From positions 101,197-133,196 of the forward strand of contig NZ_WTEV01000005.1 of NCBI RefSeq assembly GCF_009795885.1: a stretch of 32,000 nt of DNA. The letters run 5' to 3'. This stretch comes from Gilliamella sp. Pas-s25. Its GTDB lineage: Bacteria; Pseudomonadota; Gammaproteobacteria; Enterobacterales; Orbaceae. Of the stretch, positions 11,636-32,000 are shown in pieces. The number at the start of each line of letters is the position of its first letter. Positions within the stretch are counted from its first letter, which is position 1. The notes beneath the pieces were generated by a model. It saw nothing but the letters and a program-made list of their open reading frames with translations, made no database searches and was not told the origin of the DNA. The position numbers and the translations under genes are program-made.

Positions 11636-11650
11636 AATGTATGCTCTCCT

Positions 11651-14823: not shown

Positions 14824-14927
14824 TTTTTATATTATTATTAGGGTGTGTTTATCTTTGATGATATTTTTTAAATGGCATAGTGAGCGCTATAATAATTTTG
14901 CCAAAAATAACCCTAACTTAGTCCACT

Positions 14928-15096: not shown

Positions 15097-15439
15097 ATAG
15101 CTCAGATTAACTCTGAGCTATTACAATTTATATTTATGTGGCTACCAATGCATTGTTGATTAAGATATGAACTCAAAAGAGCAATAGTCCCTAATTAAGT
15201 TCGTGTTGTCATGACCAATATAAAAGTAAAAGTATTGGTTTTTTCAGATTATCTTATTTTTTATTATCATACCGTTAAAAGACAATGTAGTTAAATAATA
15301 TCGTTTTCACGCTTTCATCGAATTCCATTACAAATTTACTCTTTATTGTTATATAATTGACGTCATTTTTGTCTATGCCGTGAATAATAACGTTCTTCGG
15401 TATGTTTCTATCTTGTTATCCTTGAATTAAGGAACTTTT

Positions 15440-16762
15440 ATGATTGATTTTTCCCAATCAGTGCCAGAACTGGTCTCTTGGGCAAAAAAGAATGATTTTT
15501 CGATCGCTTTGCCTGTGGAAAGATTAGCTTTTTTATTGGCTATTGCTGTATTAAATAGCGAGCGTTTTGACGGTGAAATGACGGAGTCTGAATTAATTGA
15601 TGCTTTTAGGCATGTTTCACAAATTTTTGAACAAAGTGAAGATACTATTACATTGCGAGCCAATAATGCTATCAATGATTTGGTACGCCAACGCTTAATT
15701 ACACGTTTTGCAAGTGAAATGGTAGACGGTTTTTCGATTTATCGTTTAACTCCGTTAGGAATAGGTATTTCTGATTATTATATTCGCCAACGTGAATTCT
15801 CAACCTTGCGTTTATCCATTCAGTTATCTATTGTTGCGCAAGAGTTAAAACGAGCTGCAGATGCAGCCGTCGAAGGTGGTGATGATTTACATTGGCATCG
15901 AAATGTCTTTGCTCCATTAAAATATTCAGTAGCTGAAATTTTTGACAGTATTGATATCACGCAACGTGTTATGGATGAGCAGCAGGCAGATGTTAAACAA
16001 AATATTTCTGCCCTATTAAGTCAAGATTGGCAAGCAGCAATTAGCAGTTGTGAAGGATTACTGACTGAAACATCACAAACATTGCGGGAGTTACAAGATA
16101 CTTTGGCTGCTGCTGGCGATAAATTACAAGCCAGTTTGCTTTTAATACAAGATGCGACGCTTGATAATCCAGAGCTTGATAAAATCAACAATGTTGTTAT
16201 GGATCTACAAGGTAAATTAGATCGAATTATTGGTTGGGGGCAAAAAGCGATTGACCTTTGGATCGGTTATGATCGCCATGTTCATAAATTTATTCGTACC
16301 GCTATTGATTTAGATAAAAATCGAGTATTTTCTCAACGTTTACGAAAATCGATTCAAGGATACTTTGATTTGCCTTGGTCACTCACTTTTGCTAATGCCG
16401 AGCGCTTACTAGATATGCGTGATGAAGAATTGGCTTTACATGATGCTGAAGTAACTGGGGAATTACCGTCGGAACTTGAATTTGAAATGATTGAAGAGAT
16501 TCAAGAACATATTATTGCTCATATTGAACAAAATTTAATGGTATTTAAGCAAGAAAATAAACCACTTGATATGGGCACTACCATTCATAGCTATTTGGCT
16601 CAGTTCCCGCGCGAACAACATTTTGATATAGCAAGATTATTTATTGATCAGGCCATTCGTCTCGGTATTGCTGAAGATGATTGGCTTGGAATTCCTGCCG
16701 AATGGAAACCTATTAACGATTATGGAGCTAAGGTACAAGCACATGTCATCAACAGATACTAA
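15440..16762 (+). CDS. mukF: chromosome partition protein MukF (kleisin)
   Basis: 440 aa, collinear with E. coli MukF from the N-terminus ([36 protein letters not shown]) to the C-terminus ([16 protein letters not shown]). Confidence 0.94.
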
Positions 16763-17531
16763 CGATTTCGAAATACAACAAACCGCACATCATCTTGATG
16801 AAGTTATGGGGCGCATAGTAGCTAGTTCTCAGGCGTCTATCGATAAATATATGTCCGTTAAGTTGGCTCAAGCAATTGCTAATCCGATCTTTCCAGAACT
16901 GGATAGTTTACTACGTTCAGGCCGTCATATTGGTATTGATGAACTTGATCATCATGCCTTTCTAATGGATTTCCAACTTGAGCTTGAGCAATTTTATCAA
17001 CGTTATAATGTTGAATTGATTCGTGCGCCAGAAGGTTTTTTCTATTTGCGTCCACGCTCTACAACATTAATTCCTCGTTCAGTATTATCGGAACTTGATA
17101 TGCTTGTTGGTAAAGTACTTTGTTATCTATATTTAAGTCCAGAACGATTGGCTCATGAGGGCATTTTTACCTTACAAGAGCTATTTGATGAGCTGGTTTC
17201 GTTAGCTGATGAAAATAAATTACTGAAATTAGTCAACCAACGCTCAACGGGGTCAGATTTAGATCGTCAAAAATTATTTGATAAAGTAAAAACAGCTTTA
17301 AATCGCTTGCGTCGTTTAGGCATGATTTTCTTTATCATTGGTAATGATAGCAATCGCTTTCGTATCAATGAAGCTATCTTTCGCTTTGGGGCAGATGTGC
17401 GTAGTAGCGATGATGCGCAAGAAGCGCAGTTGCGCTTAATCAGAGATGGTGAAGCAATTAAAATTGAATCATCGCTGACTTTTAATGATAACAGCGAAGA
17501 ACAAGAAGACGTTAATGAGGAGACAGAATAA
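16743..17531 (+). CDS. mukE: chromosome partition protein MukE
   Basis: The ORF is open from 16644. The in-frame ATG at 16743 gives MSSTDTND..., analogous to E. coli MSSTNIEQ. The core [39 protein letters not shown] is near-identical. The gene overlaps the mukF end by 20 nt. Confidence 0.9.
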
Positions 17532-17533
17532 AC

Positions 17534-20500
17534 ATGATTGGACACGGTAAATTTCACTCATTAACGCTAATTAACTGGAATGGTTTTTTTGCGCGAACTT
17601 TTGAGCTAGACCAATTAGTCACAACGCTATCGGGTGGTAATGGGGCTGGTAAATCAACCACGATGGCGGCTTTTGTAACCGCATTAATTCCCGACTTAAC
17701 CTTATTACACTTTAGAAATACAACTGAAGCAGGGGCGACATCGGGTTCACGTGATAAAGGTTTGCATGGTAAGTTAAAACCAGGTGTTTGTTATTCAATG
17801 CTGGATGTGATTAATTCTCGTAACCAACGCATTATTTGTGGTGTCCGCTTACAACAAGTTGCCGGTCGGGATAAAAAAGTCGATATCAAACCATTTCTAC
17901 TGCAAGGTTTACCTATTGGTATAAGTCCAACAGAATTGGTAACAGAACGACTCAATGACAAACAGGCTCGCATTTTATCGTTACCAGAACTAAAAGATAA
18001 AGTCGAATCGATGGAAGGAATTATTTTCAAACAATTTAATTCTATTACTGATTATCATTCGGTTATGTTTGATTTTGGTATTTTACCAAAACGTTTACGC
18101 TCTCCATCAGATAGAAGTAAATATTATCGTCTGATCGAGGCCTCACTTTATGGTGGTATTTCAAGCGCTATTACACGTTCACTGCGTGATTATTTATTAC
18201 CTGAAAATGGTGGTGTGCGTAAAGCTTTTCAAGATATGGAAGCGGCACTTCGTGAAAATAGAATGACATTAGAAGCGATTCGAGTTACACAATCCGATCG
18301 TGATTTATTCAAACATCTAATTACCGAATCAACCAATTATGTCGCGGCTGATTATATGCGCCATGCTAACGAGCGCCGAGTTCATATAGAATCTGTGCTT
18401 GGCTTGCGTCGCGATATGTTTAAAACGCAAGATCTGCTTATTAGCAATCAATACCGCCAAGTTGAAATGGCGAAAGAACTTAAAGAATATCAAGAAGCGC
18501 AAAGCGATTTAGAAACCGACTTACAGGCCGCTAATGATCACTTCAACTTAGCGCAAACAGCGCTACGCCAACAAGAAAAAATTGACCGTTATCAAGCTGA
18601 TTTAGATGATTTAAGCTTAAAGCTTGAAGAACAAAACGAAGTGGTACTTGAAGCGAATGAACAGTACCAAGTTTACCGTGATCAGGTCAACGAAACAGAG
18701 CAAGAAGTCGATGAAATCAAAACACAGTTAGCGGATTATCAGCAAGCACTGGATGTTCAACAAACACGAGCAATTCAATACCAACAGGCTTTACAGGCAT
18801 TAAAAAATGCGCAGTCATTATGTCAGCTACCAAAACTAGGTATTAGCAATATCGAAGATCACTTTGCCGCGTTTGATGAAAAGCAAAAAGAGATAACCGA
18901 ACAAGTTCTTGAACTTGAACAAAAATTAAGTGTATCTGATGCCGCAATTAATCAATTTGATCGAGCTTATCAATTGGTGGTTAAATTGGTTGGTGATGTA
19001 ACTCGTAGTGATTCTTTTGTAGCTGCTAAAGAAGCATTAAGGCAGTGGCCATCACAATGTTACCAAGCCGAACACGCCGAGCATCTACAGCTACAACTTG
19101 ATGAACTCGAACAACGATTTTTTGAACAAAAAGAAGCTGAATCGTTATTAACTCAATTTTGTAAGCGTATTAATCGCCCAGTTAACTACGATGAACTCGA
19201 TGATTTAAAAGCAGAACTAGAGGTACAGTTAGACGAGAATGCTGAACGAGCTAACGAATCTAGCGAAAAACGTATCGAATTTAGACAAGAGCTTGAACAA
19301 ATTCAATCGAAAATTGCTGACTATCGCCAAAAAGCACCATTATGGTTAAAAGCACAAGATGCGTTAATAGCTTTGCAAGAACAGACCGGTGAAAGGTTTA
19401 ATAACAGCCAAGCTGTGACCCAACATATGCAAAAGCTGCTTGAAAAAGAGCGATTATTAGTTGCTCAACGAGATCAAATTAGCTTTAGACGCAATCAATT
19501 AGATGTTCAAATTGAGCAACTTAATCAACCGAGTGGTGTTGATGATGGTCGTTTATCTGCGTTGTCTGAACGCTTCAACGGTGTATTACTCTCTGAAATT
19601 TATGAAGATGTAACCATTGATGATGCGCCTTACTTTTCAGCGCTCTATGGTCCAGCAAGGCAAGCTATTGTTGTACCCGATTTATCATTAGTTAAACAGC
19701 AATTAGAAAGCCTTACTGCAAGCGATGAAGATTATCCAGAAGATATCTACTTTATCGAAGGTGATCCTTCATCATTTGATGATAGCGTTTTTGACTGTGA
19801 GGAGATGAATAAATCTGTACTGGTCAAAACAGGTGAGCGTCAATGGCGATTCTCAAGTTTTCCAAGTGTGCCACTATTTGGTCGTGCGGCGCGTGAAGTT
19901 CACCTTGAAAAACTATCAGCCGAACGTGATGAATTACATGAACGTTATGCAACAATTTCATTTGATCTACAAAAGTTACAACGCATTGAGCAAAATGTGG
20001 GACAATTTATAGGTCAATATCTTGCTGTTGCTTTTGATATCGATCCTGAAGCGGAAGCACAAAAATTAGCGACAAGACGCACCGAAATTGAACGTCAATT
20101 ATCATCTCAAGAAAGCCTTGATCAGCAAAACCAACAACAAGTTATTAATTGCAAAGAGCAATTAGCTACCGTTAATAAGCTTGTTGCTCAGATGCACTTG
20201 CTTGCAGATGAAGATTTAGCGGATCGGGTTGATGAATTACGTGAACAATTAGCTGAAGCGCAAGAATCTGTGCAATATGTTAACCGTAATTGTAATACCG
20301 TTTCAGAACTTGAACCGATTGTGGCTGTATTACAAAGTGATCCTGAACAAAATGAATCGCTTCGTGAACATTACAATACGGTTAAAGCCCAGCAACAAAC
20401 TATTCGCCAACAAGTCTTTGCGTTAACTGAAGTGATGCAACGCCGAGCTCACTTTAGTTATGAAGATTCGGCGGGTATGTTGAGTGAAAATAGTGATTTA

Positions 20501-21952: not shown

Positions 21953-21960
21953 TTCGTGCT

Positions 21961-21979
21961 TTGCCGACATTGTCGGCAA
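21961..21979 (+). terminator. weak hairpin just after mukB
   Basis: TTGCCGAC-ATT-GTCGGCAA palindrome 9 nt after the mukB stop. There is no strong T-run, so termination activity is uncertain. Confidence 0.35.
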
Positions 21980-22156
21980 AACTTTACAGTTTTTGTGAAA
22001 AAGTTTCAGGTAACTATACGTTTCAGTATAAAAATATAATTGCAGATTCAGTTTATAAGTATTAATTGCGTTTGGATAACTAAAGGTGTGATCGTTTTTT
22101 TGTTCAGTATTTTCAGTAAGCGCTTGATGTATGATAAACCATATCCAAATCTATAT

Positions 22157-22182
22157 AAAAACCGCCAATTGAGGCGGTTTTT
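22157..22182. terminator. bidirectional intrinsic terminator (mukB side / phosphatase side)
   Basis: AAAAACCGCC-AATTGA-GGCGGTTTTT. It is a GC stem flanked by an A-run and a T-run and lies between the convergent mukB and 22230..22751 genes. Confidence 0.7.
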
Positions 22183-22229
22183 CAAATTACGCATATATTC
22201 CGTTATACAATTAATACTTCAATAGTATA

Positions 22230-22751
22230 TTACTTTTTTGCTATTTTATTTAAGGCTAATGGCAAAAATTCATCTAATTGGCTTTCCACTTTAGTATAGG
22301 CTTCCAGTGGTTTTTTATATGGATCAGAAAGATCTTCCTTTTTGCCTGTTGAAAATTCAGCTAATGTAAATACTTTACCTTTAGCGTCAGGATATTCACT
22401 TAAAATCGTGTCCTTATGTTTTTGCGTCATGGTCAGCAAATATTCTGATTTATCGATATCTTCTTTCGTTAATTGTGTTGCTTTGTGTGATGAAATATCA
22501 ATGCCTCTTAACTTTAAGACAGTAATAGTTCCATCTTCGGGTGTAACTTCTTTGGGATCGACATTGACACCTCTGGATTGAACGATAATATTAAAATTGT
22601 GTTTTTTTATGTAATCACTAGCGATAGCTTCTGCCATTGGGCTTCTTCCTGTATTACCAGTACAAACAAAAGTGACAAGATGCTCTAGTGAAAAACAAGA
22701 TGCACTAAAGAACACAAATAAACCAGCTAAATATTTTTTTAAAGTGTACAT
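22230..22751 (-). CDS. low-molecular-weight protein-tyrosine(/arginine) phosphatase family protein with N-terminal signal peptide
   Basis: It has the P-loop VCTGNTGRSPMAEA (C-X5-R-S) and the acid loop LSDPY. About 22 extra N-terminal residues, MYTLKKYLAGLFVFFSASCFS, look like a Sec signal. No alternative start lies closer to the catalytic motif. Confidence 0.8.
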   Translation of the reverse strand: MYTLKKYLAGLFVFFSASCFSLEHLVTFVCTGNTGRSPMAEAIASDYIKKHNFNIIVQSRGVNVDPKEVTPEDGTITVLKLRGIDISSHKATQLTKEDIDKSEYLLTMTQKHKDTILSEYPDAKGKVFTLAEFSTGKKEDLSDPYKKPLEAYTKVESQLDEFLPLALNKIAKK

Positions 22752-23126
22752 TCTATTTCCTGACTATTTACATGTTGAAATTATCTTTACGAAAATTCTA
22801 TACTAACTAATACTAACCGCAAGTTCATTATCATCTTTTAACTAAATTTGATTTAAATTACAGAACATTCTTATATCTAACCAATAAAATCTACTCGTAT
22901 TTTTGTGAATACCGTTTTAAGCTAAAAATGTGTTAATAGTAGAGTATTTTGACCCTAATAATTTTAGGTATATATTGTATTTGTATACCCAACCGTATAA
23001 CTAAAAACTTTGGTTGTAAATGTACCTTACTGATACTTAATGGGCAATAAAATAGACTTTGAGGCTTGTTATTACTAGGTTTGGTGTGCTTTGTTGGGTT
23101 TAAAAGAATGTTGCTGTTTATTGATT

Positions 23127-23148
23127 TGGTGCGTGGGCGGGACTTGAA
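23127..23148 (-). other. tRNA 3'-end-like fragment (possible att core copy)
   Basis: The minus strand reads TTCAAGTCCCGCCCACGCACCA, which is a T-loop, T-stem 3' half, acceptor 3' half and CCA. The GCGGG-TTCAAGT-CCCGC arm type is typical of tRNA-Leu. It is one nt short of the canonical spacing, and no 5' half (GCGTGG acceptor partner) lies upstream, so it is not an intact tRNA. Confidence 0.35.
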
Positions 23149-23203
23149 AAGCACTGTTTAAATCCTTTATTATAAAGCATTGCGTTTGTTTATTCTGTTT
23201 GCC

Positions 23204-23243
23204 GTACCCCCATTTGTACCCCCAAAAGAAAAAGTGCCCCCCA
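23204..23243. repeat. iteron-like direct repeats GT(A/G)CCCCC(C)A x3
   Basis: GTACCCCCA occurs at 23204 and 23216, and GTGCCCCCCA at 23234. A related TACCTCCCCCCA lies at 23363-23374. These C-runs are conspicuous in otherwise A/T-rich DNA. Confidence 0.45.
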
Positions 23244-23502
23244 AAAAAATTAGGTATTTTAATCTTGCCAAATTGAAAGGTTAAAAATTGGTTTTAGAAT
23301 TTTGACGGTGTAAAAATTTATCTAGGTGAGCGGTATCCGTTAATTATGTTTTAGATTTTTTATACCTCCCCCCATAAAAATAAAATTTTATAAAAAAGTA
23401 TGCACGGTGTTCACTACCTGCTTGAAGCCTTATTCTAAAAGGGTTTGAGTGGTGTATACTTGAATGTTTACTATTCACAAGTATACACTTTAGGTATTCA
23501 CT
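23204..23502. other. candidate replication origin of the island
   Basis: The iterons at 23204-23243 and 23363-23374 are followed by a 24-bp pure A/T tract (23374-23397). There are three (G)TrTTCAC(T) motifs at 23407, 23472 and 23494. A perfect 11-bp inverted repeat GTGTATACTTG(15 nt)CAAGTATACAC lies at 23452-23488. The whole region sits immediately 3' of the primase-helicase gene. Confidence 0.4.
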
Positions 23503-23504
23503 CA

Positions 23505-23535
23505 ATAAAAAACCGCCAATTAGGGCGGTCTTATT
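23505..23535 (-). terminator. intrinsic terminator of the primase operon
   Basis: The minus strand reads AAGACCGCCCTAATTGGCGGTTTTTTATT, 22 nt after the primase stop, giving a GC stem plus a T6 run. Confidence 0.75.
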
Positions 23536-23556
23536 TTGGTTGTTCAATTTGAGCTA

Positions 23557-25926
23557 CTAGTTAGGATCTTCGGCTTTAGGTAGCCAATCTTTACACATAT
23601 CTGGGTTTATTTCTAAATTAGTTTTTACCCCTATATTAGTTCGTTTTTTAATGTATGCCTTTCTATTTTCTTTTATGGCGTAATTTAATGATAAACCGAA
23701 CCCACTCAAGGACAATGGATTATTAAGCCCTGTATTTCGCACATACTCAATATAAGCATGATATAAATATTTTTTAGGGTTAAATGGTATTATGCCTAAA
23801 TTACCCATAAGCATACCATTGGGATGATCTAGCACATCAAGATAACTACAAAAATCCACCAAGTGGTCAGATTCGCGTTTAATCGCCGTCGCTTCGTCTG
23901 ATTGTTGTTGCTGGTGTAGTCTTTCTTTGGCTTCTGTTGGACTGGTAAACTCATTTAATAGCAACCTCACAATTGAGGGGAGTTCTTGCTCTATTTTGCT
24001 AACCAAGTTTAAATCTCGCTCTTTTTCAGGGATAACCTCGCCAAAGTGAAAGATAACCCTACGCCGTGATATACCGCCGTTACGCTCGTTAAATCTCATT
24101 GCCTCGTTATTGATAACCAAAACTACCGCAGGGATTTTACAAGAATAGGGTTGCTTGTGTTTTGGGTCTATTGCGACTTCATCACCGCCAGTAATTGCTT
24201 TTAATCCTGCGCCACTGCCCATATAACGAGGTTGGTCGGGTAATATGACTAATGAGTAACCCACGATTAAGGCTCTATCCCTTGCCTTTTCTAATGCGTC
24301 CATAGTGCCTATTACAGTATTGTTTTTACCTGATAACATCGTCGCAATTTCAGCAAAAACACTTTTACCGCTACCGCCTGCGCCTGTAACCTCTAAGAAT
24401 AATTGCCAGTCATGGCGATTAGCCAATATCATATATAGCGCAGCTAAGATATTTTTAGCCTTATCTTGATTGCCTGATGCTCTTTTTAGCCATTTAGCGA
24501 AGTTTGGCGCGTGAGTATCAAAAGATTCCTTTTCTTTGGCAGGGTAGTAATCAATATCATTACTAACTAATAGCCAATCTGGCTTATTGTGTGGTCTAAA
24601 GGTTTGACTTTTTAGCTCATATACGCCATTTTTAAAGCAGATTAAATCTTTCTGAGGTGTTCCCATTATCGGCAGTGATAACCTGAGCGATTCAACCGCT
24701 GAGCTAATTCGCATAGGGTTAAAAGGTTCGCCTGATTGAGTAAATAAATCGGCTAGTGTTCGCATTAATAGTTTATCGCTTATAGGTTGCCATGCGTTAT
24801 CTTGATAGTGATAGATTTCATCGGTAGTAAGGTTAATCGCAAGGTTATTATCATAATATTGATTGAGCAGTTCAGCCCGTTGGCTTGATGCCATTTGCGA
24901 TAGGTTCATGCTTGATAACTCGTTTTGCATGTTATGTTTTGTCATGGTGGATAACTCTGGTTTTATGAGGTTTTTATTAAAATGAGCCGAAGCGTTATCG
25001 CTCCCAAATTGTTGCCTATAATCATCCCAATCACATTTATAATCTGTATCAGGAACGGAGTAATAACCATTTACCGCTTGAGCTGCCTCTATTGCTTTAG
25101 CTAAGCCCGTATTTGGGCTTTGTCCAATATCGTTATCACCTGCGATAATGATTTTAGCGGTAGGGTTTAACTCACGAATGTCTTTAGCTACATGAATAAG
25201 ATTGCCTGCGTCAATAGCGGATATAACAATAGACTGTTGGCGGAATTCTGCTATTGATATCCCTGTAGCCAACCCCTCACAGATAATAATTTCATTGTGT
25301 GCGAGCAAATTTGCGCACACCTCGGCAGGTCTGCTCAATATTGAGCGCACTAATATAAAAGCACTTTTCTTATTTGAGCCTCTCATTAAGTGCTTACTGC
25401 CGTCTAGCTCAATAAATTGACCGCCTGCGTATTCATTATGAAGATTCAGCATAGGCGCAAAAATGCGCCCGTTATCTAACAAGGGTAAGTCAAAGGTTAA
25501 TCCTTTCTTGGTCAGGTATTGAGATTGCCCTAATGTTGCTTTAGATAGCAAATACTCAACCTTTTTACATACGGGATTTTCTGGTATGTTATTATTATGC
25601 AATTGTTTGGAATCTATATTCCTAAATACGAGATTTTCCCGTATTTTGTGATTGTGATTAGACAGATTTAAACACTCCGCTACTTTACTCGATGCTTCTT
25701 TAGCGTCACTATGATAATAGTTTTTGATAAGCTCTAAGCCGTCACCACTACCGCACTGGTTACAGATGTACGTACCTCTACCATTTTGGTTATCAAATCT
25801 AAATCTATCTTTACCCCCACAGACAGGACAAGGGCAATGCTTGCCATTACCCACCTCAATACCCAATGATTGAAAGACATAATCCCATTTACCTACGGCT
25901 TGGGCTGTAATTTCATTGATTTTCAT
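23557..25926 (-). CDS. P4-alpha-type bifunctional DNA primase / helicase
   Basis: 789 aa. The N-terminal zinc ribbon reads HCPCPVCGGKDRFRFDNQNGRGTYICNQCG. Toprim motifs are present (IIICEGLATG ... IIIAGDND). The C-terminal D5/P4-family NTPase has Walker A GAGGSGKS and Walker B LVILPDQP. An AGAGGGGA Shine-Dalgarno precedes the ATG. Confidence 0.9.
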   Translation of the reverse strand: MKINEITAQAVGKWDYVFQSLGIEVGNGKHCPCPVCGGKDRFRFDNQNGRGTYICNQCGSGDGLELIKNYYHSDAKEASSKVAECLNLSNHNHKIRENLVFRNIDSKQLHNNNIPENPVCKKVEYLLSKATLGQSQYLTKKGLTFDLPLLDNGRIFAPMLNLHNEYAGGQFIELDGSKHLMRGSNKKSAFILVRSILSRPAEVCANLLAHNEIIICEGLATGISIAEFRQQSIVISAIDAGNLIHVAKDIRELNPTAKIIIAGDNDIGQSPNTGLAKAIEAAQAVNGYYSVPDTDYKCDWDDYRQQFGSDNASAHFNKNLIKPELSTMTKHNMQNELSSMNLSQMASSQRAELLNQYYDNNLAINLTTDEIYHYQDNAWQPISDKLLMRTLADLFTQSGEPFNPMRISSAVESLRLSLPIMGTPQKDLICFKNGVYELKSQTFRPHNKPDWLLVSNDIDYYPAKEKESFDTHAPNFAKWLKRASGNQDKAKNILAALYMILANRHDWQLFLEVTGAGGSGKSVFAEIATMLSGKNNTVIGTMDALEKARDRALIVGYSLVILPDQPRYMGSGAGLKAITGGDEVAIDPKHKQPYSCKIPAVVLVINNEAMRFNERNGGISRRRVIFHFGEVIPEKERDLNLVSKIEQELPSIVRLLLNEFTSPTEAKERLHQQQQSDEATAIKRESDHLVDFCSYLDVLDHPNGMLMGNLGIIPFNPKKYLYHAYIEYVRNTGLNNPLSLSGFGLSLNYAIKENRKAYIKKRTNIGVKTNLEINPDMCKDWLPKAEDPN

Positions 25927-25937
25927 TACATCCCCTC

Positions 25938-26306
25938 TTAATGAATTATTGCGTTAGATTCAGCTTTGATATCTTCGGCTAAATCAATAAATAACGTTGC
26001 AAGCATTTCTTGCCCGAATTGGGTTAATGCCATAGGTTTATCATCACTTTCGGCGTACATCTTTTTTAATAGTCCATAGGTACGATTTAACCCCTCACTT
26101 TCGCCAAAGTCTTCAATCAAGCATTCTTCAAGACTAACTTTTAACCCTAAAACAATTAAATCTTTATCAATCTTGATATCCTCATGAATAAACACCTTGG
26201 CACCGTTTTTATTAATCTGCTCAATTAAAAATAAACCTGCGATAATCGCCATGGTAGAATCAACGATACTATGATGAATTGCTGTTACTTCTTGCTGATT
26301 ATCCAT
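25938..26306 (-). CDS. hypothetical protein (122 aa)
   Basis: The ORF has a GGGGT Shine-Dalgarno. Its start overlaps the upstream ORF stop by 8 nt, and it ends 11 nt before the primase start. I recognise no motif. Confidence 0.6.
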   Translation of the reverse strand: MDNQQEVTAIHHSIVDSTMAIIAGLFLIEQINKNGAKVFIHEDIKIDKDLIVLGLKVSLEECLIEDFGESEGLNRTYGLLKKMYAESDDKPMALTQFGQEMLATLFIDLAEDIKAESNAIIH

Positions 26307-26490
26307 GATTTACCCCCTTAATTTGTGTCATGTATCGCCTAACTTCGGGCGGTAGTCGCTTAGTGACATCAGCAAGTAAATCAGAGATTTCATCCTTGCC
26401 AAAAGAAAGTAGTGCTACATATTTGCCATTTTTAAGCCTTAATGCGGTAATAGTGCCGTCATTGTTATGGACAAAATCAAACTCTTTCAT
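26299..26490 (-). CDS. hypothetical small protein (63 aa)
   Basis: A GGAGG Shine-Dalgarno sits 5 nt upstream of the ATG. The ORF overlaps the upstream ORF by 14 nt and the downstream ORF by 8 nt, indicating translational coupling. Confidence 0.55.
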   Translation of the reverse strand: MKEFDFVHNNDGTITALRLKNGKYVALLSFGKDEISDLLADVTKRLPPEVRRYMTQIKGVNHG

Positions 26491-26698
26491 TCTTTGCCTC
26501 CTTGCGCTCGGTTTCGCTTCTAAATAGCTTTTTAGAATCGTTAATTAAGTCAGATACAGCATCAAGGGCATAGGAGCGTAATTCTTCGTTAATTGGCGTG
26601 TTTGAATCACAATCAGCCATTAAAAGCGTGGTGATAGCGTTAGCTTGTCCTAGTTTTGTATTGATAGTATTAATTGCGTCCAATGAGATATTAGCCAT
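26477..26698 (-). CDS. hypothetical small helical protein (73 aa), paralog of 26691..26924
   Basis: A GGAGG Shine-Dalgarno lies about 9 nt upstream. The ATGGCTAA overlap covers the preceding stop. The N-terminal I-N-T-K-L-G-Q segment aligns with I-E-T-K-L-I-Q of the neighbouring ORF. Confidence 0.55.
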   Translation of the reverse strand: MANISLDAINTINTKLGQANAITTLLMADCDSNTPINEELRSYALDAVSDLINDSKKLFRSETERKEAKNERV

Positions 26699-26924
26699 TA
26701 TTCTTATCCTCCATTAACCCGTACTCTTGTAACTCATCAAAAGCTTGCTCTACTAAATCAGCGATAACCCACAGTAAATTACTCATATCGGCTTGTTCGA
26801 TAAAAGGCTCGTCATATCCTGCGCACTTATAATTAGTGTTATCCAAAGCGATTTTAGCCATGCTCCGAACTTGAATAAGTTTTGTTTCGATGTTATTTAA
26901 TATCTGAAAGTTATTATTGCCCAT
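26691..26924 (-). CDS. hypothetical small helical protein (77 aa)
   Basis: The ORF track gives 26691..26984. The internal ATG at 26924 (MGNNNFQILNN...) has a perfect GGAGG 8 nt upstream and overlaps the Icd-like stop, so I prefer it. Confidence 0.5.
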   Translation of the reverse strand: MGNNNFQILNNIETKLIQVRSMAKIALDNTNYKCAGYDEPFIEQADMSNLLWVIADLVEQAFDELQEYGLMEDKNNG

Positions 26925-27132
26925 AGTGATAACCTCCAAAGCTTCTGGCTCTTTCAATGACTGGATATAAGCGAATTCTGGCAATAAAGATAAGGGATGA
27001 TTTGCCTAGGCTCTTGCGTGCTTGGCGTTCGGTTGTTGCCGTTATTTGGACTACTTGAGCCATTGATAGGTCATAGAATTTAAATAGTTTGGTTTCACGA
27101 TTACCCTTTTCTTGATGATTCGTTTTCAACAT
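26914..27132 (-). CDS. Icd-like (host cell division inhibitor-like) small protein
   Basis: The ORF track gives 26914..27204. The ATG at 27132 has AAGGGAGG upstream and sits 1 nt after the preceding stop. KLFKFYDLSMAQVVQITATTERQARKSLGKSSLIFIARI fits the pattern I recall for Icd-like proteins of P4-type islands, F.W.F...V..I.A.SE..AR..L....L.FA.R. This is motif memory only. Confidence 0.45.
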   Translation of the reverse strand: MLKTNHQEKGNRETKLFKFYDLSMAQVVQITATTERQARKSLGKSSLIFIARIRLYPVIERARSFGGYHYGQ

Positions 27133-27133
27133 A

Positions 27134-27475
27134 CTATTTACCTCCCTTATGGTTTTGCGTAGCATCAAGTAGGTTAATTTGATTTGAAGCGAAACAAGCG
27201 ACATCCCTTAATTGTGCTAGTAAATAGCCAATATCGCGCATATCATTTTTAAGGTTCTGCTCGGAATAACTCTCATTTTCACTAGCCCAAAACATCAGGT
27301 TACCAATCGCACCTATTCCATATAGAATAGATTGCTGTAGTTCTTCAAAATGGTTCTCAGCTTGTAGTAAATGGTGTGTTGGAATATCTGCTTGATAGAG
27401 ATTTAAAACAGAAATTAAATTAGATAGGTCAGGTTGCCCATTTTTAGGGCGTAGGGTATCATTACTATTAGCCAT
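27134..27475 (-). CDS. hypothetical protein (113 aa), first gene of the primase operon
   Basis: This is the C-terminal part of the 344-aa ORF 27134..28168. The in-frame ATG at 27475 (MANSNDTLRP...) is preceded by a GGAG Shine-Dalgarno. Sequence upstream of it looks intergenic, being AT-rich with repeated operator-like motifs, and carries a better-supported gene on the opposite strand. The alternative model is the full 344-aa ORF. Confidence 0.5.
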   Translation of the reverse strand: MANSNDTLRPKNGQPDLSNLISVLNLYQADIPTHHLLQAENHFEELQQSILYGIGAIGNLMFWASENESYSEQNLKNDMRDIGYLLAQLRDVACFASNQINLLDATQNHKGGK

Positions 27476-27564
27476 AGCATTACTCCGTTTAATGTTTGTG
27501 GTTAGATAGCTCATTGAGGCGCAAACTCTCTGGGCTATTGTTTTTATTAATACGTTAATTTCAA

Positions 27565-27653
27565 ATATGTCCGTACAATATATTTTATTTTGTCCGCACA
27601 TGTCAACACTATTTTTACTCTTTGTTTTCGTGTATATTGTCCGTATTAATAAT
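27565..27653. promoter_or_regulatory. operator-like direct repeats TGTCCG(T/C)A x3 in a divergent control region
   Basis: The three copies are ATATGTCCGTACAAT (27568), TTTTGTCCGCACATG (27591) and ATATTGTCCGTATTAA (27638). They lie between the minus-strand operon start (27475) and the plus-strand RHH start (27669). Confidence 0.4.
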
Positions 27654-27668
27654 TTATGAATAATTAAT

Positions 27669-27827
27669 ATGGCAAACGAAACAAGTAAATCAAAACGTAA
27701 AGATATCCGCTTCCCCCATGAATTAATAGAGCGAATAGACGAGCAATCCAAGAAAGAGAATACTAACTTTTCCGCTTGGGTTATTGCTACTTGTCGCGAA
27801 AAACTAGCTAAATTAGATAAGAAATAA
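27669..27827 (+). CDS. ribbon-helix-helix (Arc/CopG-like, YlcI/YnfO-type) small DNA-binding protein
   Basis: This 52-aa ORF is absent from the supplied ORF track: MANETSKSKRKDIRFPHELIERIDEQSKKENTNFSAWVIATCREKLAKLDKK. It has a basic N-tail, a beta-strand (DIRFP) and two helices, which is the classic RHH layout. A canonical intrinsic terminator follows 12 nt downstream. Confidence 0.55.
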   Translation: MANETSKSKRKDIRFPHELIERIDEQSKKENTNFSAWVIATCREKLAKLDKK

Positions 27828-27838
27828 TCTTTTAAATT

Positions 27839-27866
27839 AATACCACTGATTGGTGGTATTTGTTTT
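27839..27866 (+). terminator. intrinsic terminator of the RHH gene
   Basis: AATACCAC-TGATTG-GTGGTATT followed by TGTTTT. Confidence 0.6.
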
Positions 27867-28170
27867 CCCATTCTCCTTTTTATGGACTCAAGAAACCTAC
27901 TTTTAAAATTCAACCCCATGCAATGATTAGTACGCATTAAAAAAACGGTTTTCACTGCGGACTTAGTGCGTACTTTTACACTGGCTTCCGTTTGGGTTTC
28001 CATTGAAATAGAATCTTTTGGCTGGAAACTAGAATTATTGCCAACCAAGAAGAATGATTTCACCTTTTGGATGGCATTAATCCCATCAAAATAGCAATTT
28101 AAGCGATTATTTAGGGCTTGGGTATATTGCCCTATTGCTAGGGTGTTAAATGGGTGTGTAGTCATCATAA

Positions 28171-28932
28171 TTAAGCCACCTTACCCAATAACCGAATTAT
28201 GTAGCTTTGTGATAGCTTGATGAGTTCTGCTTTTCGTTTTTCATAATTCCAACCCATATCTATTAACGTGATATTGGATTTCTCAAGGTAAGCTAAGTGA
28301 TTAAGTTGTTCTTCGGTGATATGGTCGCGAATATCACCCGTGAGATTATGAGCTTTTCGGTAAGCCTTTGCTGTCATACCAAGTACAATACGATTAATCA
28401 TATCAAATTCATTAGTATAGTGATGTGGCTTGGTCTCCTTGCCTAGGGATAATCGTTGTATAGTTAATGCGTCACACATAGGACGGCTATAATCAGCGAC
28501 TTCTAAACGTGCTTTTAATCGCTTAAACGCTTTCTTCTGGATTGCTGGCGCGATTTCTTTAAGGTGTTCTTCACAACGTATAAAGTACTTTCTTATTGCT
28601 CGTCCTTTCTCGTTGTTTTCAATCATCGCCAATTCTTTAGCGGTTCCGATTGTAAGGATATAATCTGTACTTTTACGATCTCCACCTCGCTTAGTTGTCC
28701 ATTTTATTTGTTGTTCATTATTTGTACTTTGATTCCTGAATTCTGATGAATCAAAGATTAAAAAATCATCATTTTTAATAAGTCCATATTCTTTTATTCT
28801 TCCCTTTATCCATGTTGAAAAATCATTTCCTACTTTTAAGTAATTATGTAAAGCCTTTGCGCTAACTGTTTGTTGTAATTTGCCGTTTAATTGCGTTTCT
28901 GTTACTGGCACTAAATTATTAAAATCTGTCAT
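28171..28932 (-). CDS. phage antirepressor-like protein (AntA N-terminal domain + ORF6C-like C-terminal domain)
   Basis: VSAKALHNYLKVGNDFSTWIKGRIKEYGLIKNDDF ... GGDRKSTDYILTIGTAKELAMIENNEKGRAIRKYFIRCEE matches the AntA/AntB domain pattern. The C-terminal ...NRIVLGMTAKAYRKAHNL..IRDHITEEQLNHLAYLEKSNITLIDMGWNYEKRKAEL fits the ORF6C pattern. A GGAG Shine-Dalgarno is present. Confidence 0.75.
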   Translation of the reverse strand: MTDFNNLVPVTETQLNGKLQQTVSAKALHNYLKVGNDFSTWIKGRIKEYGLIKNDDFLIFDSSEFRNQSTNNEQQIKWTTKRGGDRKSTDYILTIGTAKELAMIENNEKGRAIRKYFIRCEEHLKEIAPAIQKKAFKRLKARLEVADYSRPMCDALTIQRLSLGKETKPHHYTNEFDMINRIVLGMTAKAYRKAHNLTGDIRDHITEEQLNHLAYLEKSNITLIDMGWNYEKRKAELIKLSQSYIIRLLGKVA

Positions 28933-29051
28933 TTTTTATCTCCTAACGTGCCCGAAAACTCCCCGTTTAGCTAAATTTAGGCAAGGGGATACCATCAGCG
29001 CAAAAATGCGCTTTGTTCTTAAATAATTAACTAAATGGTTATCTTTTTATG

Positions 29052-29080
29052 TAGACACTTATAGCAAGATTGGCTATGAT
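29052..29080 (+). promoter_or_regulatory. sigma70-like promoter on the plus strand inside the alpA-ant intergenic region
   Basis: TAGACA (29052-57), a 17-nt spacer, then TATGAT (29075-80). It points toward hairpin D, which has a T-run. Confidence 0.3.
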
Positions 29081-29086
29081 TGGAGG

Positions 29087-29142
29087 CGTCTAAGTTCCAA
29101 TCTAAGCCCTTTACTATTTCGTTAGATAAAGGGTTTTGCTTT
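29087..29142 (+). ncRNA. candidate ~55-nt antisense small RNA
   Basis: The predicted start is about 7 nt after the TATGAT box. The 3' end is the hairpin CCCTTTACTA-TTTCGT-TAGATAAAGGG followed by TTTTGCTTTATT, which is a plus-strand-oriented terminator. It would be antisense to the alpA-ant transcript. Purely a sequence prediction. Confidence 0.25.
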
Positions 29143-29149
29143 ATTACCA

Positions 29150-29350
29150 TTATGCCACCTCGCGACGTTCTACTTTGCGAGATTCAAGCCAAGAATAAAT
29201 CTCATCAGCTCGATAGCCAACACGACGCAAACCTATTCTAATTTTCTGGGGGAAAGTTTCATCTTTCTGTTCTAGTGTATAAAGGCTAGTGTCAGATTTG
29301 AAGTGAAGTAAGGCTTTTACTTCTTTTTTGGATAGGATGTTGTTGTTCAT
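29150..29350 (-). CDS. alpA: AlpA-family phage/island transcriptional regulator (excisionase-like)
   Basis: 66 aa. ILSKKEVKALLHFKSDTSLYTLEQKDETFPQKIRIGLRRVGYRADEIYSWLESR matches the AlpA/Phage_AlpA winged-HTH pattern (L.R..V......S..TIYR....G.FP.P.K.G.R.V.W...EV..W). Confidence 0.8.
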   Translation of the reverse strand: MNNNILSKKEVKALLHFKSDTSLYTLEQKDETFPQKIRIGLRRVGYRADEIYSWLESRKVERREVA

Positions 29351-29691
29351 TAATTATTTCCTCAATTTATCAGTATTTGACACTATATTACTGTATAAAT
29401 ACTTAGCCATCCATTAAGATAGGAATTACTTTAAAATATTTATAATTCCGCCAAAATAATACATATTCCGCCAATAATTTGTCCGATGATAATATTAATA
29501 AAAACAATTAATTAATTGAATAATCTTAGAAAAAATAGTACATAATCGTTGTAGAGAGTTATCGGTCGTTTATGATCTTTTACATTTTTTTATAAATTTT
29601 TATTTTATTTAAGGCACAAATAGATAAATAGAATAATTCGGATATATTAAATAACTTTATTTTCAATAAGATAGTTAATAATAGAAAGGGA

Positions 29692-29722
29692 TGACCAACG
29701 GATTATAAGTCAATTGGTCATT
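29692..29722 (-). terminator. intrinsic terminator of the 211-aa gene
   Basis: On the minus strand, ATGACCAA-(15 nt)-TTGGTCAT is followed by CCCTTTCTATTATT, 13 nt after the stop codon. Confidence 0.5.
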
Positions 29723-29734
29723 TGAGTTGAAATG

Positions 29735-30370
29735 CTAATCAAGTGTATAAGAAAGAGCTATTTTTGCTTTTTCATAAAATGAAGATTTGGACAATCCATT
29801 TAAACTCAAACTATGAGCTTTTGCTAAGTCATCAATTTCTCTTTTTATTGTAGCTATATTAGGATTATCTACAGTACCATAAGCATTACCTTGTTTCTTG
29901 GCTAATAATTTTAATAAAATGCCTGTCATTTTATAAATGTTTACCTGTTCTTCATCTTTCTTATATTGCCCTCTTTGGCTTTTAGATAATTCGATTCCTA
30001 TTTCTAATAATTCATCACCGCCGATCGTGTATAACATTTCTCTCCATTTTTGTGTTCTTGTAAATCTAATCATGGCTTTTAAAGCACGATTTTTAACTGG
30101 TTCTGGCGTATTATTTTCATCAAGTAATGGGTAAGCAATAACAAACATTATATCTGCATGAACGTTGTTATGATAACGTAAATCTAACGCATATAAGCAC
30201 CGTTCAATATGATTTTTATATGTTTTAAACTCTGCTATCATCTCTGCTGGTATGTCTTTTATTTTCATATATGGTTCTAAACCACATAATAATAAAGCAA
30301 GCTCTTTTGTTTCAATTATAGGTAATTTTACAGCTTGCTCGAATACTCCCATTTTAGCAAAACTAACCAT
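29735..30370 (-). CDS. hypothetical protein (211 aa), stand-alone cargo gene
   Basis: A clean ORF with its own promoter, leader and terminator. It is predicted helical and I recognise no catalytic motif. The C-terminal segment GTVDNPNIATIKREIDDLAKAHSLSLNGLSKSSFYEKAKIA looks HTH-like. Confidence 0.65.
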   Translation of the reverse strand: MVSFAKMGVFEQAVKLPIIETKELALLLCGLEPYMKIKDIPAEMIAEFKTYKNHIERCLYALDLRYHNNVHADIMFVIAYPLLDENNTPEPVKNRALKAMIRFTRTQKWREMLYTIGGDELLEIGIELSKSQRGQYKKDEEQVNIYKMTGILLKLLAKKQGNAYGTVDNPNIATIKREIDDLAKAHSLSLNGLSKSSFYEKAKIALSYTLD

Positions 30371-30394
30371 CTACATTTCTCACGCCCCTAATAG

Positions 30395-30484
30395 ATATTT
30401 GCGCCAGTTCGCTAGGGTTGCGAATGTTCGGGGATCAGCCTAGACGCAAATAATACAGTAATATACAGTTAGGTACATTATAGC
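30395..30484 (-). promoter_or_regulatory. extended -10 promoter plus structured 5' leader of the 211-aa gene
   Basis: The minus strand has TTTAAT, 17 nt, then TGCTATAAT (30484-30476), a perfect TGnTATAAT. The leader contains nested stems TATTTGCG/CGCAAATA (30395-402 / 30444-451), CTAGG/CCTAG and CGAA/TTCG. A CCCC in the hairpin could pair with the GGGG near the Shine-Dalgarno region. Confidence 0.4.
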
Positions 30485-30534
30485 ACTGTGTTTATATGCA
30501 TTAAATTGTTTTAGATATGAAATTATTGGGGTTA

Positions 30535-31086
30535 CTAATCAGGAATTTTTATACACATAGTGATAAGATGATCGTCATCTTCTTGGGTGGGCAATATTTT
30601 AAATCCGTATTTTTTATATAGTGCTATCAATGAGGGATTATTATTACATTCTAATATAGCAAATCTACCGCCAGCCATAGCGCGGATTTGTTTAATTATT
30701 GTGAAAGTTTCTTGTAATATTAACCCAAGATTTATAGGATTATTTTCAACTGCGAAATTTTTACCAATTTGACCAATCAAATGAACTTTTATTTCTGTAG
30801 CGTGCTTATTAAAGCCATCCATACTAGATACTAATGTTTTAGATATTTCAAAATTACTTGATTGTATTGATGTAAATGCTAAAGAAAAATAGGCGAGAAT
30901 ATCAAGATTATCTTCGTTGATAATAAGATAGGTTTTTGATACGTTCCTTTTGCTAAATTCTATTGCTGAATTACATAAGAAATCTTGTAAATCTTTATTT
31001 CTAGGGCAAGAAAAACAACAAAGGAGGCTTTTTATTTCCTTCTCGTCATATTCATTAATAAGTTCATCCAGATTAACCGTGAGCAT
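30535..31086 (-). CDS. GNAT-fold acetyltransferase, TacT/AtaT-like toxin architecture (divergent)
   Basis: 183 aa. The N-terminal CCFSCPRNKDLQDFLCNSAIEFSKRNVSKTYLI parallels the FDCG..LN.FL...A......S.TYV block of GNAT toxins. HLIGQIGKN parallels LLGRLAVD. The C-terminal GGRFAILECNNNPSLIALYKKYGFKIL is the GNAT ...FY.K.GF element. The acetyl-CoA loop is poorly conserved. Confidence 0.6.
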   Translation of the reverse strand: MLTVNLDELINEYDEKEIKSLLCCFSCPRNKDLQDFLCNSAIEFSKRNVSKTYLIINEDNLDILAYFSLAFTSIQSSNFEISKTLVSSMDGFNKHATEIKVHLIGQIGKNFAVENNPINLGLILQETFTIIKQIRAMAGGRFAILECNNNPSLIALYKKYGFKILPTQEDDDHLITMCIKIPD

Positions 31087-31255
31087 TTTTTCGGGTTAAA
31101 ACTTTAGAAAATAATTTTACTGCTTTTTTAGATTCGGCTTTCTCGTCTCGCTCGCGAGTTTTTATCGTACTTTGTGCTTTCTCTAGTTCCTGAAATACAT
31201 TAATGTCACGAGGCTCAGCCAAAACAAACGTTTTGCTAAATGATGATGTAGCCAT
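31073..31255 (-). CDS. small protein (60 aa), putative cognate antitoxin/regulator
   Basis: A GGAGG Shine-Dalgarno lies 6 nt upstream. The ORF overlaps the GNAT gene start by 14 nt and is preceded by a 19-bp palindrome overlapping a -10 box. It does not resemble DUF1778/TacA as far as I can judge. Confidence 0.55.
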   Translation of the reverse strand: MATSSFSKTFVLAEPRDINVFQELEKAQSTIKTRERDEKAESKKAVKLFSKVLTRKNAHG

Positions 31256-31277
31256 ATTACGCCTCCTAAAAAGTACA

Positions 31278-31296
31278 ATTACACAAGTTGTGTAAT
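31278..31296. promoter_or_regulatory. palindromic operator ATTACACAA-G-TTGTGTAAT
   Basis: Perfect 9+9 inverted repeat 23 nt upstream of the 60-aa ORF start. On the minus strand it is immediately preceded by TATATAAT, a -10-like box. Confidence 0.5.
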
Positions 31297-31616
31297 ATTA
31301 TATAGCTCTATTTTGTTATATCAATATGTATTTTACTGTTTAAAACAGAATATAAATAAATATGAGAAAAACAATAATAAATATTTAATTTTCTTTAAAT
31401 TAAAATTTATGAAAGAATTTTATAAGCTGTCTTCATAATGAAGATAACTGGCTTTTATGATTAAATTGGTATCCATTTATTAAATGCTTTTCACTGGATA
31501 CTTGTTTGGATACCTATATAAGTACTAGTGATTATGTATTAAATAGATTTTTAAATATTTAAATTCTATAAGAAGTGGCTCAATTTGAGCGTCTAAAACT
31601 TGAGCAGGTAACAAGT

Positions 31617-32000
31617 TTATGCTCTTTGCTTGTCGGCGGTTAAATCCTTTGGTGATGGCGATACTAGTTCTATGCGCATTGGTTTGGATTTGGCTGTAAT
31701 GCTACTTCCCATAGATTGATGATCTAATATCTGCTTTTCAGAATAACCATGATTAGCAAGCATCAATTTGGCAATACTCGCGTTAAACTCGCCTTTTAAG
31801 CCTTTATTCATTAACTCCACTTCTTGGCGCGCTTTGATAAGTTCTAACATGTCCTTAAATTCTTCGCTTGAACTCGCATAATTATATAAACTCGACCTTG
31901 AACAGTTAGCATATAAAGCCAGTCCAGCCATAGAGGGAATGATTTCGCCATTTTTGATATAACCCTGTTTATGTAAATACGCTTGCCCTAGTTTTAACAT
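31617..32000 (-). CDS. phage small terminase subunit-like protein (truncated by window edge)
   Basis: PSMAGLALYANCSRSSLYNYASSSEEFKDMLELIKARQEVELMNKGLKGEFNASIAKLMLANHGYSEK fits the HTH plus G..N...A.F.L.N..GY pattern of gp3/Terminase-small families. The ATG exactly at position 32000 may be coincidental, and the ORF may extend upstream beyond the window. Confidence 0.55.
   Translation of the reverse strand: MLKLGQAYLHKQGYIKNGEIIPSMAGLALYANCSRSSLYNYASSSEEFKDMLELIKARQEVELMNKGLKGEFNASIAKLMLANHGYSEKQILDHQSMGSSITAKSKPMRIELVSPSPKDLTADKQRA

Follow-up and report, generated by a model that had tools for sequence, protein, structure and literature searches.

The right-hand part (positions 23127–32000, 8.9 kb) of the 32,000-nucleotide stretch of DNA from Gilliamella sp. 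Pas-s25 that we analysed (contig NZ_WTEV01000005.1, hereafter the window) belongs to an integrated island in a Gilliamella chromosome, and the end of the window cuts it. We argue that this element is probably an integrative satellite of the phage-inducible chromosomal island (PICI) type, with a backbone resembling that of the satellite P4, which would redirect the terminase of a helper phage by means of its own small terminase subunit (TerS).

The genes which an earlier note on this DNA had named are all found where it had placed them, and all on the minus strand. The primase-helicase of P4-alpha type (23557–25926, 789 amino acids) has the Pfam domains Zn_Ribbon_Prim, Toprim_3, D5_N, DUF5906 and Pox_D5, matches phrog_2249 (E 6e-119) and aligns end to end with P4 alpha (37% identity, E about 1e-157 to 1e-180). 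AlpA, an excision and activation regulator of 66 amino acids, is encoded at 29150–29350 (Pfam Phage_AlpA, E 6e-8). The homologue of small terminase subunits (GP3_package, 31617–32000; Pfam PF16677, E 7.6e-21; phrog_606, and phrog_309 terS) has its 5' end cut by the window; about 10 codons are missing, and the relatives begin with MAGRKSKIKD. The Icd-like protein (26914–27204) scores 33.2 bits against NCBIfam NF033153 phage_ICD_like, whose cut-off is 25, and its real start is likely the ATG at 27132, which gives 72 amino acids. The anti-repressor-like protein of 253 amino acids (28171–28932) had been described as of the AntA/ORF6C type: the AntA domain is there (Pfam E 2.9e-22; phrog_5817, E 6e-41), but no ORF6C domain was detected in the protein. 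One real gene, ylcI (27669–27827), is on the plus strand. As had been noted, capsid, tail and lysis genes are absent: no open reading frame (ORF) of 23127–32000 matches such a family in Pfam, PHROG, NCBIfam or PADLOC-type scans.

The relatives of the element, numbered here with the prefix L, show what lies beyond the window. A protein-seeded scan of the GTDB species genomes gave the seven closest loci of TerS, L001–L007, all from Gilliamella. TerS comes directly after the integrase gene int in about a dozen loci: Gilliamella L001–L006, L021, L022 and L025 from IMG/VR, L014 from Orbus, and the uncultured L015 and L037 (the contig of L037 begins at TerS, with int not visible, and L007 is disrupted by an insertion sequence (IS) upstream of TerS). 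In L001–L003, L005, L006, L014, L015, L021, L022 and L025 the preceding gene codes for a P4-type integrase of 416 amino acids, at a distance of ~0.6–1.4 kb. Such an integrase is present in every relative in which an intact upstream flank is covered, the flank of L007 being the IS-disrupted one; a tRNA or tmRNA gene precedes it wherever the flank is covered, both lying within ~2.3 kb upstream of TerS, and in none of the relatives, about 20 loci of Orbaceae, is there a morphogenesis module upstream of TerS. This bears out the view of the earlier note that we are dealing with a satellite-type island rather than with the early genes of a prophage. The position of TerS upstream of alpA, to which the note had drawn attention, is also real, and is conserved across at least three attachment sites. 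In L001–L003, tRNA-Leu(GAG) lies downstream of secG and is followed by the 416-residue integrase, TerS and the block from alpA to the primase; the site is tRNA-Ala(GGC) in L005, L006 and Orbus mooreae, and tmRNA in one Logan contig. The integrase of L003 is of the P4/CP4-57 type (PRK09692, 481 bits; 35% identity to P4 Int), and the integrases of the relatives are 34–38% identical to P4 Int.

The other end of the element is in the window. On the minus strand, the 22 nucleotides at 23127–23148 match the 3'-terminal 22 of tRNA-Leu(GAG) apart from a deletion of 1 nucleotide; this direct repeat reads TTCAAGTCCCGCCCAC-GCACCA, compared to the tRNA 3' end TTCAAGTCCCGCCCACGGCACCA in L001–L003. The scar that had been called att-like is thus the true attR. 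We found no internal att core inside the element. By analogy with L003, attL is estimated to lie ~2.27 kb past the end of the window, which would bring the whole element to ~11.1 kb. Short repeats next to the core, in both arms, co-vary with the type of integrase (GGGGGTA in the window, L003 and L022, AGGTATA in L005, AGTTATA in L007), and they behave like arm-type integrase sites.

The earlier note held that the island matches neither the template of P4 nor that of the canonical PICIs; by its components, it fits a known kind of element. The PICIs have five core components (de Sousa et al. 2023, PMC10085698), and four of them are recognised: int (in the relatives), alpA, the primase-replicase and terS. 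There is no capsid-morphogenesis gene, so that the element would be a PICI of 'Type B'. The components that are forbidden in PICIs (tail, holin, portal, connector) are all absent from 23127–32000, and the sister element L022 has a tape-measure gene. Like the element, whose int is known from the relatives, the Gram-negative PICIs EcCICFT073 and PmCI172 (Fillol-Salom 2018, PMC6092414) combine int, alpA, a primase and terS, with all genes pointing the same way starting from int; they have accessory genes that separate int from the regulator, and neither tail nor lysis genes. Their order, however, is int, regulator, pri-rep, then terS, whereas the element, like about 12 relatives, has terS between int and alpA; it also differs from them by the missing capsid-morphogenesis gene and by its replication protein, which is of the full P4-alpha type.

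The likeness to P4 consists of the full-length alpha, the integrase family (in the relatives), the AlpA/Vis-type regulator, the size of ~11 kb and the order int, vis/alpA, small ORFs, alpha, cis region, att; sister elements carry, in addition, an RNA of the C4/CI type upstream of the replication operon. Integrated P4 (NC_001609) reads int, cII, gop/beta, cos, psu-delta-sid, ori, vis, cI, epsilon, orf151, cnr, alpha, crr, att. A primase next to att, which had been regarded as non-canonical, is therefore the usual arrangement of P4. On the contrary, sid, delta, psu, epsilon, cnr, gop, beta and cII are absent: when the window and 12 sister loci were searched by tblastn with the P4 proteins, none of these matched at E ≤ 0.01, and no such Pfam or PHROG family was seen. 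Nor is there evidence that the element has a cos site or a helper of the P2 type, and its TerS homologue, AntA and Icd-like gene have no counterpart in P4. The P4-like model of SatelliteFinder consists of int, psu, delta, sid, alpA, epsilon and alpha; since the element has only alpha, alpA and (in the relatives) int of these seven, it is not P4-like in the SatelliteFinder sense. It would function most like a PICI or SaPI (staphylococcal pathogenicity island) equipped with its own TerS, on a chassis for integration and replication of the P4 type. P4 inserts into leuX, which, like the site of the window element, is a tRNA-Leu gene.

A primase-seeded scan of IMG/VR showed that the same backbone, namely int-alpA RNA, antisense ylcI (in most members), icd, the small ORFs and the alpha-type primase, occurs in three formats. 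The first is that of the capsid-forming PICIs (cfPICIs) L026–L032. In L026, the Pfam scan recognised capsid, protease, portal and head-completion genes, HNH, a Terminase_4 TerS and the large terminase subunit (TerL) after the primase; the capsid genes were read in L026, and L027–L032 have 7–10 kb past the primase, outside the Pfam scan. These Gilliamella cfPICIs share with the element the int-alpA RNA, antisense ylcI (most of them), icd, the small ORFs (identity up to 96%) and the primase (57–67%), but the element is devoid of the capsid, protease, portal, head-completion, HNH, Terminase_4 TerS and TerL genes, and its attR comes directly after the primase. The second format is the TerS-first form, as in the window, and the third is the minimal element L033, which measures 8.2 kb from attL to attR and has no TerS. 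In the cfPICIs L027, L028 and L032 the int-alpA RNA directly follows int, while the TerS-first elements have TerS and one cargo slot (slot 1) in between. This makes TerS and slot 1 look like an inserted module, and an insertion between int and the leader that carries the int-alpA RNA would be the simplest reading of this comparison.

The assignment of TerS relies on Pfam, PHROG and synteny, and the NCBI name of the gene is already 'terminase small subunit'. A search of the PDB with the sequence of the window TerS gave no match. Satellite TerS sequences are 91–96% identical across Gilliamella species. Homologues in phages are annotated as TerS or adjoin terL (APSE P17, 42% identity; a Providencia phage, 51%), and in a Gilliamella prophage the TerS P0018, which is 54% identical, is immediately followed by a TerL of the Terminase_3 family, a portal gene and a Mu-F-like gene. 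The homologues that are at least 61% identical occur only in the satellite layout (L014, L015, L037), while those with 46–58% identity are in phages (L011–L013, L017, L035, L036). L016 (a contig of ENA ERZ15184983) is a PICI-like element with the canonical order alpA-primase-TerS, and its TerS is 58% identical. Because it carries TerS in the canonical position, at least two satellite architectures have taken up this TerS family. In L016, TerS sits after a replication module with a split primase/DUF927 and a HigBA-like pair.

These comparisons point to a candidate helper. Gilliamella prophages of 44–50 kb, roughly four satellite lengths, have tail genes of the siphovirus type and, directly upstream of TerL, a TerS which is 52–58% identical to that of the satellite. 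When the window TerS is compared to that of the Gilliamella prophage, the identity depends on the region: the N-terminal helix-turn-helix has 41%, the core 69% and the C-terminal tail 57%, and the tails of other phage TerS have only 1–5 of about 23 residues in common with the window TerS. This pattern would fit a protein whose DNA recognition has diverged and whose contact with the large terminase of the helper has been kept. In the IMG genome 2870905362, the satellite L021 and a prophage of this kind, L040, reside together; the TerL of L040 shares 90% identity with the reference, and the TerS of L040 is 52% identical to that of the satellite. In L022, the 6 kb between the primase and attR (11520–17577) code for a tape-measure protein of 1095 amino acids and a tail-completion protein, which are 72–75% and 56% identical, respectively, to those of the helper-type prophage lineage, and for a Fic-domain protein. 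It is unusual for a satellite to encode tail parts, as L022 does.

A comparable case is that of the staphylococcal pathogenicity islands SaPI1 and SaPIbov1, in which a satellite TerS redirects packaging: there, as in our element with its candidate helper, the satellite encodes a diverged homologue of the small terminase subunit of the helper. In our element the divergence is greatest in the half that recognises DNA. The difference is that the TerS family and the regulators are unrelated (there is no Stl/Str), and that the element has neither cpmAB nor ppi.

The region between the TerS module and the replication genes contains a conserved block with regulatory signals. This promoter-plus-leader block of 134 bp (30379–30512, minus strand) is 94–99% identical in all loci, and both its flanks are variable. 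It contains an extended −10 element (TGCTATAAT, 30485–30477) and the int-alpA RNA motif (30450–30385, minus strand; Rfam RF02996, 41.2 bits, for a gathering score of 35.8), and is followed by a ribosome-binding site and the start codon of the next gene (slot 2), the variability starting exactly at the ATG. That gene differs from locus to locus: it is a protein of 211 amino acids in the window (29735–30370, minus strand; phrog_30524, E 2e-52), DUF6387 in L001 and L003, and unrelated proteins of 316 and 319 amino acids elsewhere. The window gene shares 42% identity with the one that immediately follows int in vB_KppS-Ant, a cfPICI-like 'phage'. A near-invariant block ahead of a gene that changes between loci suggests that the int-alpA RNA may be a cis-acting leader at a hot spot of gene swapping. 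The Rfam motif has no assigned function; elsewhere we found it at 1590–1655 in L027, 1589–1654 in L028, 3991–4056 in L032 and 8119–8183 in L015.

The replication operon begins with a gene for a protein of 113 amino acids (27134–27475, minus strand; phrog_15327, E 1.7e-9), ahead of which the promoter scan gave a strong promoter-like site, TTGACA-18-TATATT (27606–27577, minus strand). The only plus-strand gene of the element, ylcI, is divergent from this promoter and has its own terminator (27839–27860). It codes for a ribbon-helix-helix protein of the YlcI/YnfO family, 52 amino acids long (NF041551, 53 bits, for a cut-off of 30; Pfam DUF3950). An antisense ylcI homologue is at the same position in L001, L002, L005, L014, L015, the Pasteurella 'phage' Pmp7, vB_KppS-Ant and most Gilliamella cfPICIs. 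With the promoter facing away from it, the gene has the layout of a divergent repressor and its operator, and we regard YlcI as a candidate repressor. It is also a candidate for the repressor of the Gram-negative PICIs. An ORF of 344 codons at 27134–28168 was rejected as a gene: it is a shadow ORF, whose sole stretch conserved in Orbus is the antisense of ylcI.

In three sister elements, in place of this layout or besides it, isrK and C4 antisense RNAs score above the gathering score directly upstream of icd (L021, 8429–8632; L027, 4457–4660; L037, 5134–5357), and in L021 they replace most of the 113-residue gene. No C4 or isrK RNA was matched in the window at E ≤ 1; the 113-residue gene is there instead. 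The grouping of an Icd-like gene and an anti-repressor gene in one operon recalls the immI operon (c4-icd-ant) of P1 and isrK of Salmonella, and the three sister elements extend this likeness to the RNAs, which also recall the CI RNA of P4. The window copy differs from P1 by the absence of a C4/isrK match and by the position of ant, which is upstream, not downstream, of icd.

The following mechanism would account for these features; the sequence features themselves are there to be read, while every functional step is deduced from them. A tyrosine integrase of the P4/CP4-57 type, encoded beyond the window, would have integrated the element at the 3' end of tRNA-Leu(GAG), an event of which the 22-nucleotide repeat is the trace. 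AlpA is known as an activator, and satellite TerS as a redirector of packaging (PMC6092414). Upon infection by the helper, or its induction, AlpA would be made from behind the conserved promoter and the int-alpA RNA leader, and would trigger excision and expression, as in the PICIs of E. coli. The operon from orf113 and icd to the primase would then be freed from a YlcI-type repressor in the window copy, and from a C4 antisense RNA like that of P1 and P4 in the sister elements, and AntA may derepress, or sense the helper. The alpha-type primase-helicase would replicate the circle from an origin that is probably located within the conserved arm which follows the primase gene. The satellite TerS, as a diverged copy of the prophage TerS, would recruit the large terminase of the helper to the satellite DNA, and concatemers would be packaged by headful into helper capsids, as in the case of the SaPI TerS; the element has no gene that would resize the capsid. 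Meanwhile, hot spots between the conserved modules would exchange toxin-antitoxin, abortive-infection and restriction-modification cargo.

It is important to note that several observations weigh against this reading. Excision, replication and packaging are all inferred from the sequence of the element. The int and attL of the window copy are predicted from the relatives, both of them beyond position 32000, and we identified neither a pac site nor an origin. Exact look-ups of three window proteins (the GNAT-like protein, AntA and the primase), meant to extend the contig, matched no record. The AlphaFold model of TerS (pLDDT 73) has no significant match in Foldseek, the best being 2ao9 with E 0.46. 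The assignment of the helper, which is a candidate, is based on homology and on a single genome that harbours both elements. The cargo of the window has no PADLOC match to a known defence system, and its slot-1 pair no Pfam match either. Lastly, the window copy may be defective, because it has a deletion in a conserved gene, and transposase genes of IS families interrupt the sister elements L003 (14054–14311) and L007 (8482–9980).

This brings us to the alternative that the island is a decaying, immobile P4-like island of the cryptic CP4-57 type, which is maintained chiefly for the toxin-antitoxin or defence cargo that it carries, and whose TerS is a relic or a decoy that blocks packaging. The deletion is the first argument in its favour: ~294 bp are missing from the gene of 135–137 codons (orf137) directly downstream of alpA, of which 39 codons remain (29030–29149, minus strand, from the alignment with L001 and L005). 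This gene is intact in L001, L005, L007, L014 and L037, and in L004 and L021 the breaks in the blastn alignments would accommodate it too. In L007 the insertion is just upstream of TerS, which it truncates, and no integrase is seen; since several relatives (L003, L007) carry IS insertions, decay is a frequent event in this family. Further arguments for such an island are the orphan arm remnant beside attR (described below), the toxin-antitoxin, abortive-infection (Abi) and restriction-modification genes that fill the cargo slots, and the lack of a recognised capsid-remodelling gene. On the other hand, the remaining genes of the window copy are all intact and tightly coupled, TerS is conserved (91–96% identity) across Gilliamella species and keeps the helper-like C-terminal tail, and members of the family are found at tRNA-Leu, tRNA-Ala and tmRNA genes, with an integrase and arm repeats that suit the site in each case, which implies recent mobility. 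We consider this alternative rather unlikely, though it is the one to be taken most seriously.

That an island made of int, TerS and toxin-antitoxin genes lies by chance next to a separate island running from alpA to the primase is far less probable. It is true that TerS and slot 1 look inserted when compared to the cfPICIs, in which the int-alpA leader comes directly after int, and that L033 lacks TerS altogether. However, a single att pair surrounds the whole element, with no att core inside, and the same composite arrangement is seen at three different attachment sites and in two genera, besides uncultured samples, which points to one inherited architecture rather than to a local accident. 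That the island is the early region of an ordinary prophage, with its morphogenesis genes beyond 32000, is hardly credible: the window does end inside a gene for a small terminase subunit, which terL follows in phages, but transcription from TerS towards the primase puts terL at 31616 or below, where the cargo and alpA sit, the relatives have int and a tRNA or tmRNA on the other side of TerS, and the elements are short (8.2 kb between the att sites of L033, ~12.8 kb from int to the right arm in L021).

If the element is a PICI-type satellite, as we favour, the bee-gut symbionts (Gilliamella, Orbus) are added to the hosts of phage satellites. A concrete candidate helper is named, the prophage of 44–50 kb with a TerS 52–58% identical, so that the pair of satellite and helper is directly testable. 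One regulation-replication backbone with three formats for packaging (own TerS, own capsid, neither) is a natural experiment in swapped hijacking strategies, and the orphan int-alpA RNA motif is now in a defined setting, that of a promoter-proximal leader fused to interchangeable genes. Current ideas about satellites are not overturned. We found no paper on satellites in Gilliamella or Orbaceae, in a literature coverage that was incomplete, and nothing relevant on the int-alpA RNA and PF16677. Much more tentatively, it is conceivable that the TerS-first elements of the Orbaceae form an undescribed lineage, in which a TerS of phage origin and a defence hot spot were inserted between int and the leader, that the leader acts in cis and gates the swappable gene, possibly alpA too, and that YlcI is the missing master repressor of the Gram-negative PICIs, interchangeable with C4 RNA in sister copies; taken together, we would regard these propositions as doubtful.

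The PICMIs of the Vibrionaceae are minimalist satellites which integrate next to fis and have no terS (PMC10803314). They have the core int-alpA-primase in common with our element, and the relative L033, which is devoid of TerS, is similarly minimal, but terS is present in the window element and the family described here uses tRNA and tmRNA sites.

Regarding the cargo, three hot spots can be distinguished, and genes related to anti-phage defence or toxin-antitoxin systems were identified in the first, and the Fic-domain gene in the third. Slot 1, between TerS and the RNA leader, contains a GNAT-like pair in the window and L002, RnlA/RnlB in L001 and L003, AbiEii in L005 and L007, a SocA-Panacea pair in L004 and L022, a type III restriction-modification system in L015 and an NYN-domain protein in L037. 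The window pair (30535–31255, minus strand) consists of an ORF of 60 codons (31073–31255) that overlaps the gene of an acetyltransferase-like protein of 183 amino acids (30535–31086; phrog_1758 acetyltransferase, E 3.5e-34), a layout which is toxin-antitoxin-like, with a promoter-like site at 31324–31297 on the minus strand. Slot 3, after the primase, is empty in the window and holds 0.7–6 kb in other loci. In P4-like satellites, a hot spot for defence genes lies towards the integrase (PMC9122126), and the cargo slots of the element mirror the defence hot spots of these satellites.

Between the primase and icd, four small overlapping ORFs of 122, 63, 73 and 77 codons (25938–26924, minus strand) are translationally coupled to the primase. 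They are kept in L001, L002, L005 and L007, and some of them are found in the Orbus locus L014 and in the cfPICIs L026–L032, with identities up to 96%.

On the other side of the primase, a terminator (23503–23538) directly follows the gene, and the conserved non-coding right arm (23149–23556, minus strand) is 89–96% conserved in L002, L005, L007 and L021–L023. It contains two arm-type repeats GTACCCCCA (23204–23224), an AT-rich stretch and TTCAC-type repeats (GGTGTTCACT at 23406, GGTATTCACT at 23493). At the matching position P4 has crr, with TGTTCACC repeats, and the right arm is a candidate for a region of the ori or crr type; the ori that the earlier note had placed beside the primase is thus only suggested by the sequence. 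In the search for TGTTCACC iterons of the P4 type, only two or three loose TTCAC repeats were found 3' of the primase, and the enrichment over the whole window is weak (9 observed for 2.5 expected).

Just outside attR, ~155 bp (22971–23126, minus strand) are 85–97% identical to the stretch between tRNA and int in L001–L003, L005 and L006, and look like an orphan integrase-proximal remnant, similar to a P' arm. The possibility raised in the earlier note, that a satellite abuts another element, holds to the extent of this stub, but no integrase remnant was found in the window by tblastn. In L033, the attR of a first satellite is followed by the P' arm and the integrase N-terminus of a second one at the same tRNA (4580–4765 and 12690–13233), with a different type of arm repeat, which shows that tandem satellites occur in the family. 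By analogy, the stub was most likely left by a second satellite which was formerly in tandem with the first. We also considered a second, decayed element between mukB and attR, and rejected it: only 22971–23126 is derived from an element, and the resemblance of a terminator is limited to 14 nucleotides. As for the empty attachment site, a metagenome scan with the gene of the low-molecular-weight phosphatase that precedes the island gave only non-syntenic matches, and an exact look-up of this gene gave one contig of 1 kb, which breaks inside the repeated arm.

The rest of the window contains no tRNA gene over its 32 kb, and its left part (1–21952) consists of the housekeeping genes rsmA, surA, lptD, pcnB, pntAB and mukFEB, followed by the phosphatase gene (22230–22751). 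The interval between mukB and attR (21953–23126), phosphatase gene included, has a G+C content of 30–34%, compared to 38–40% in mukB.

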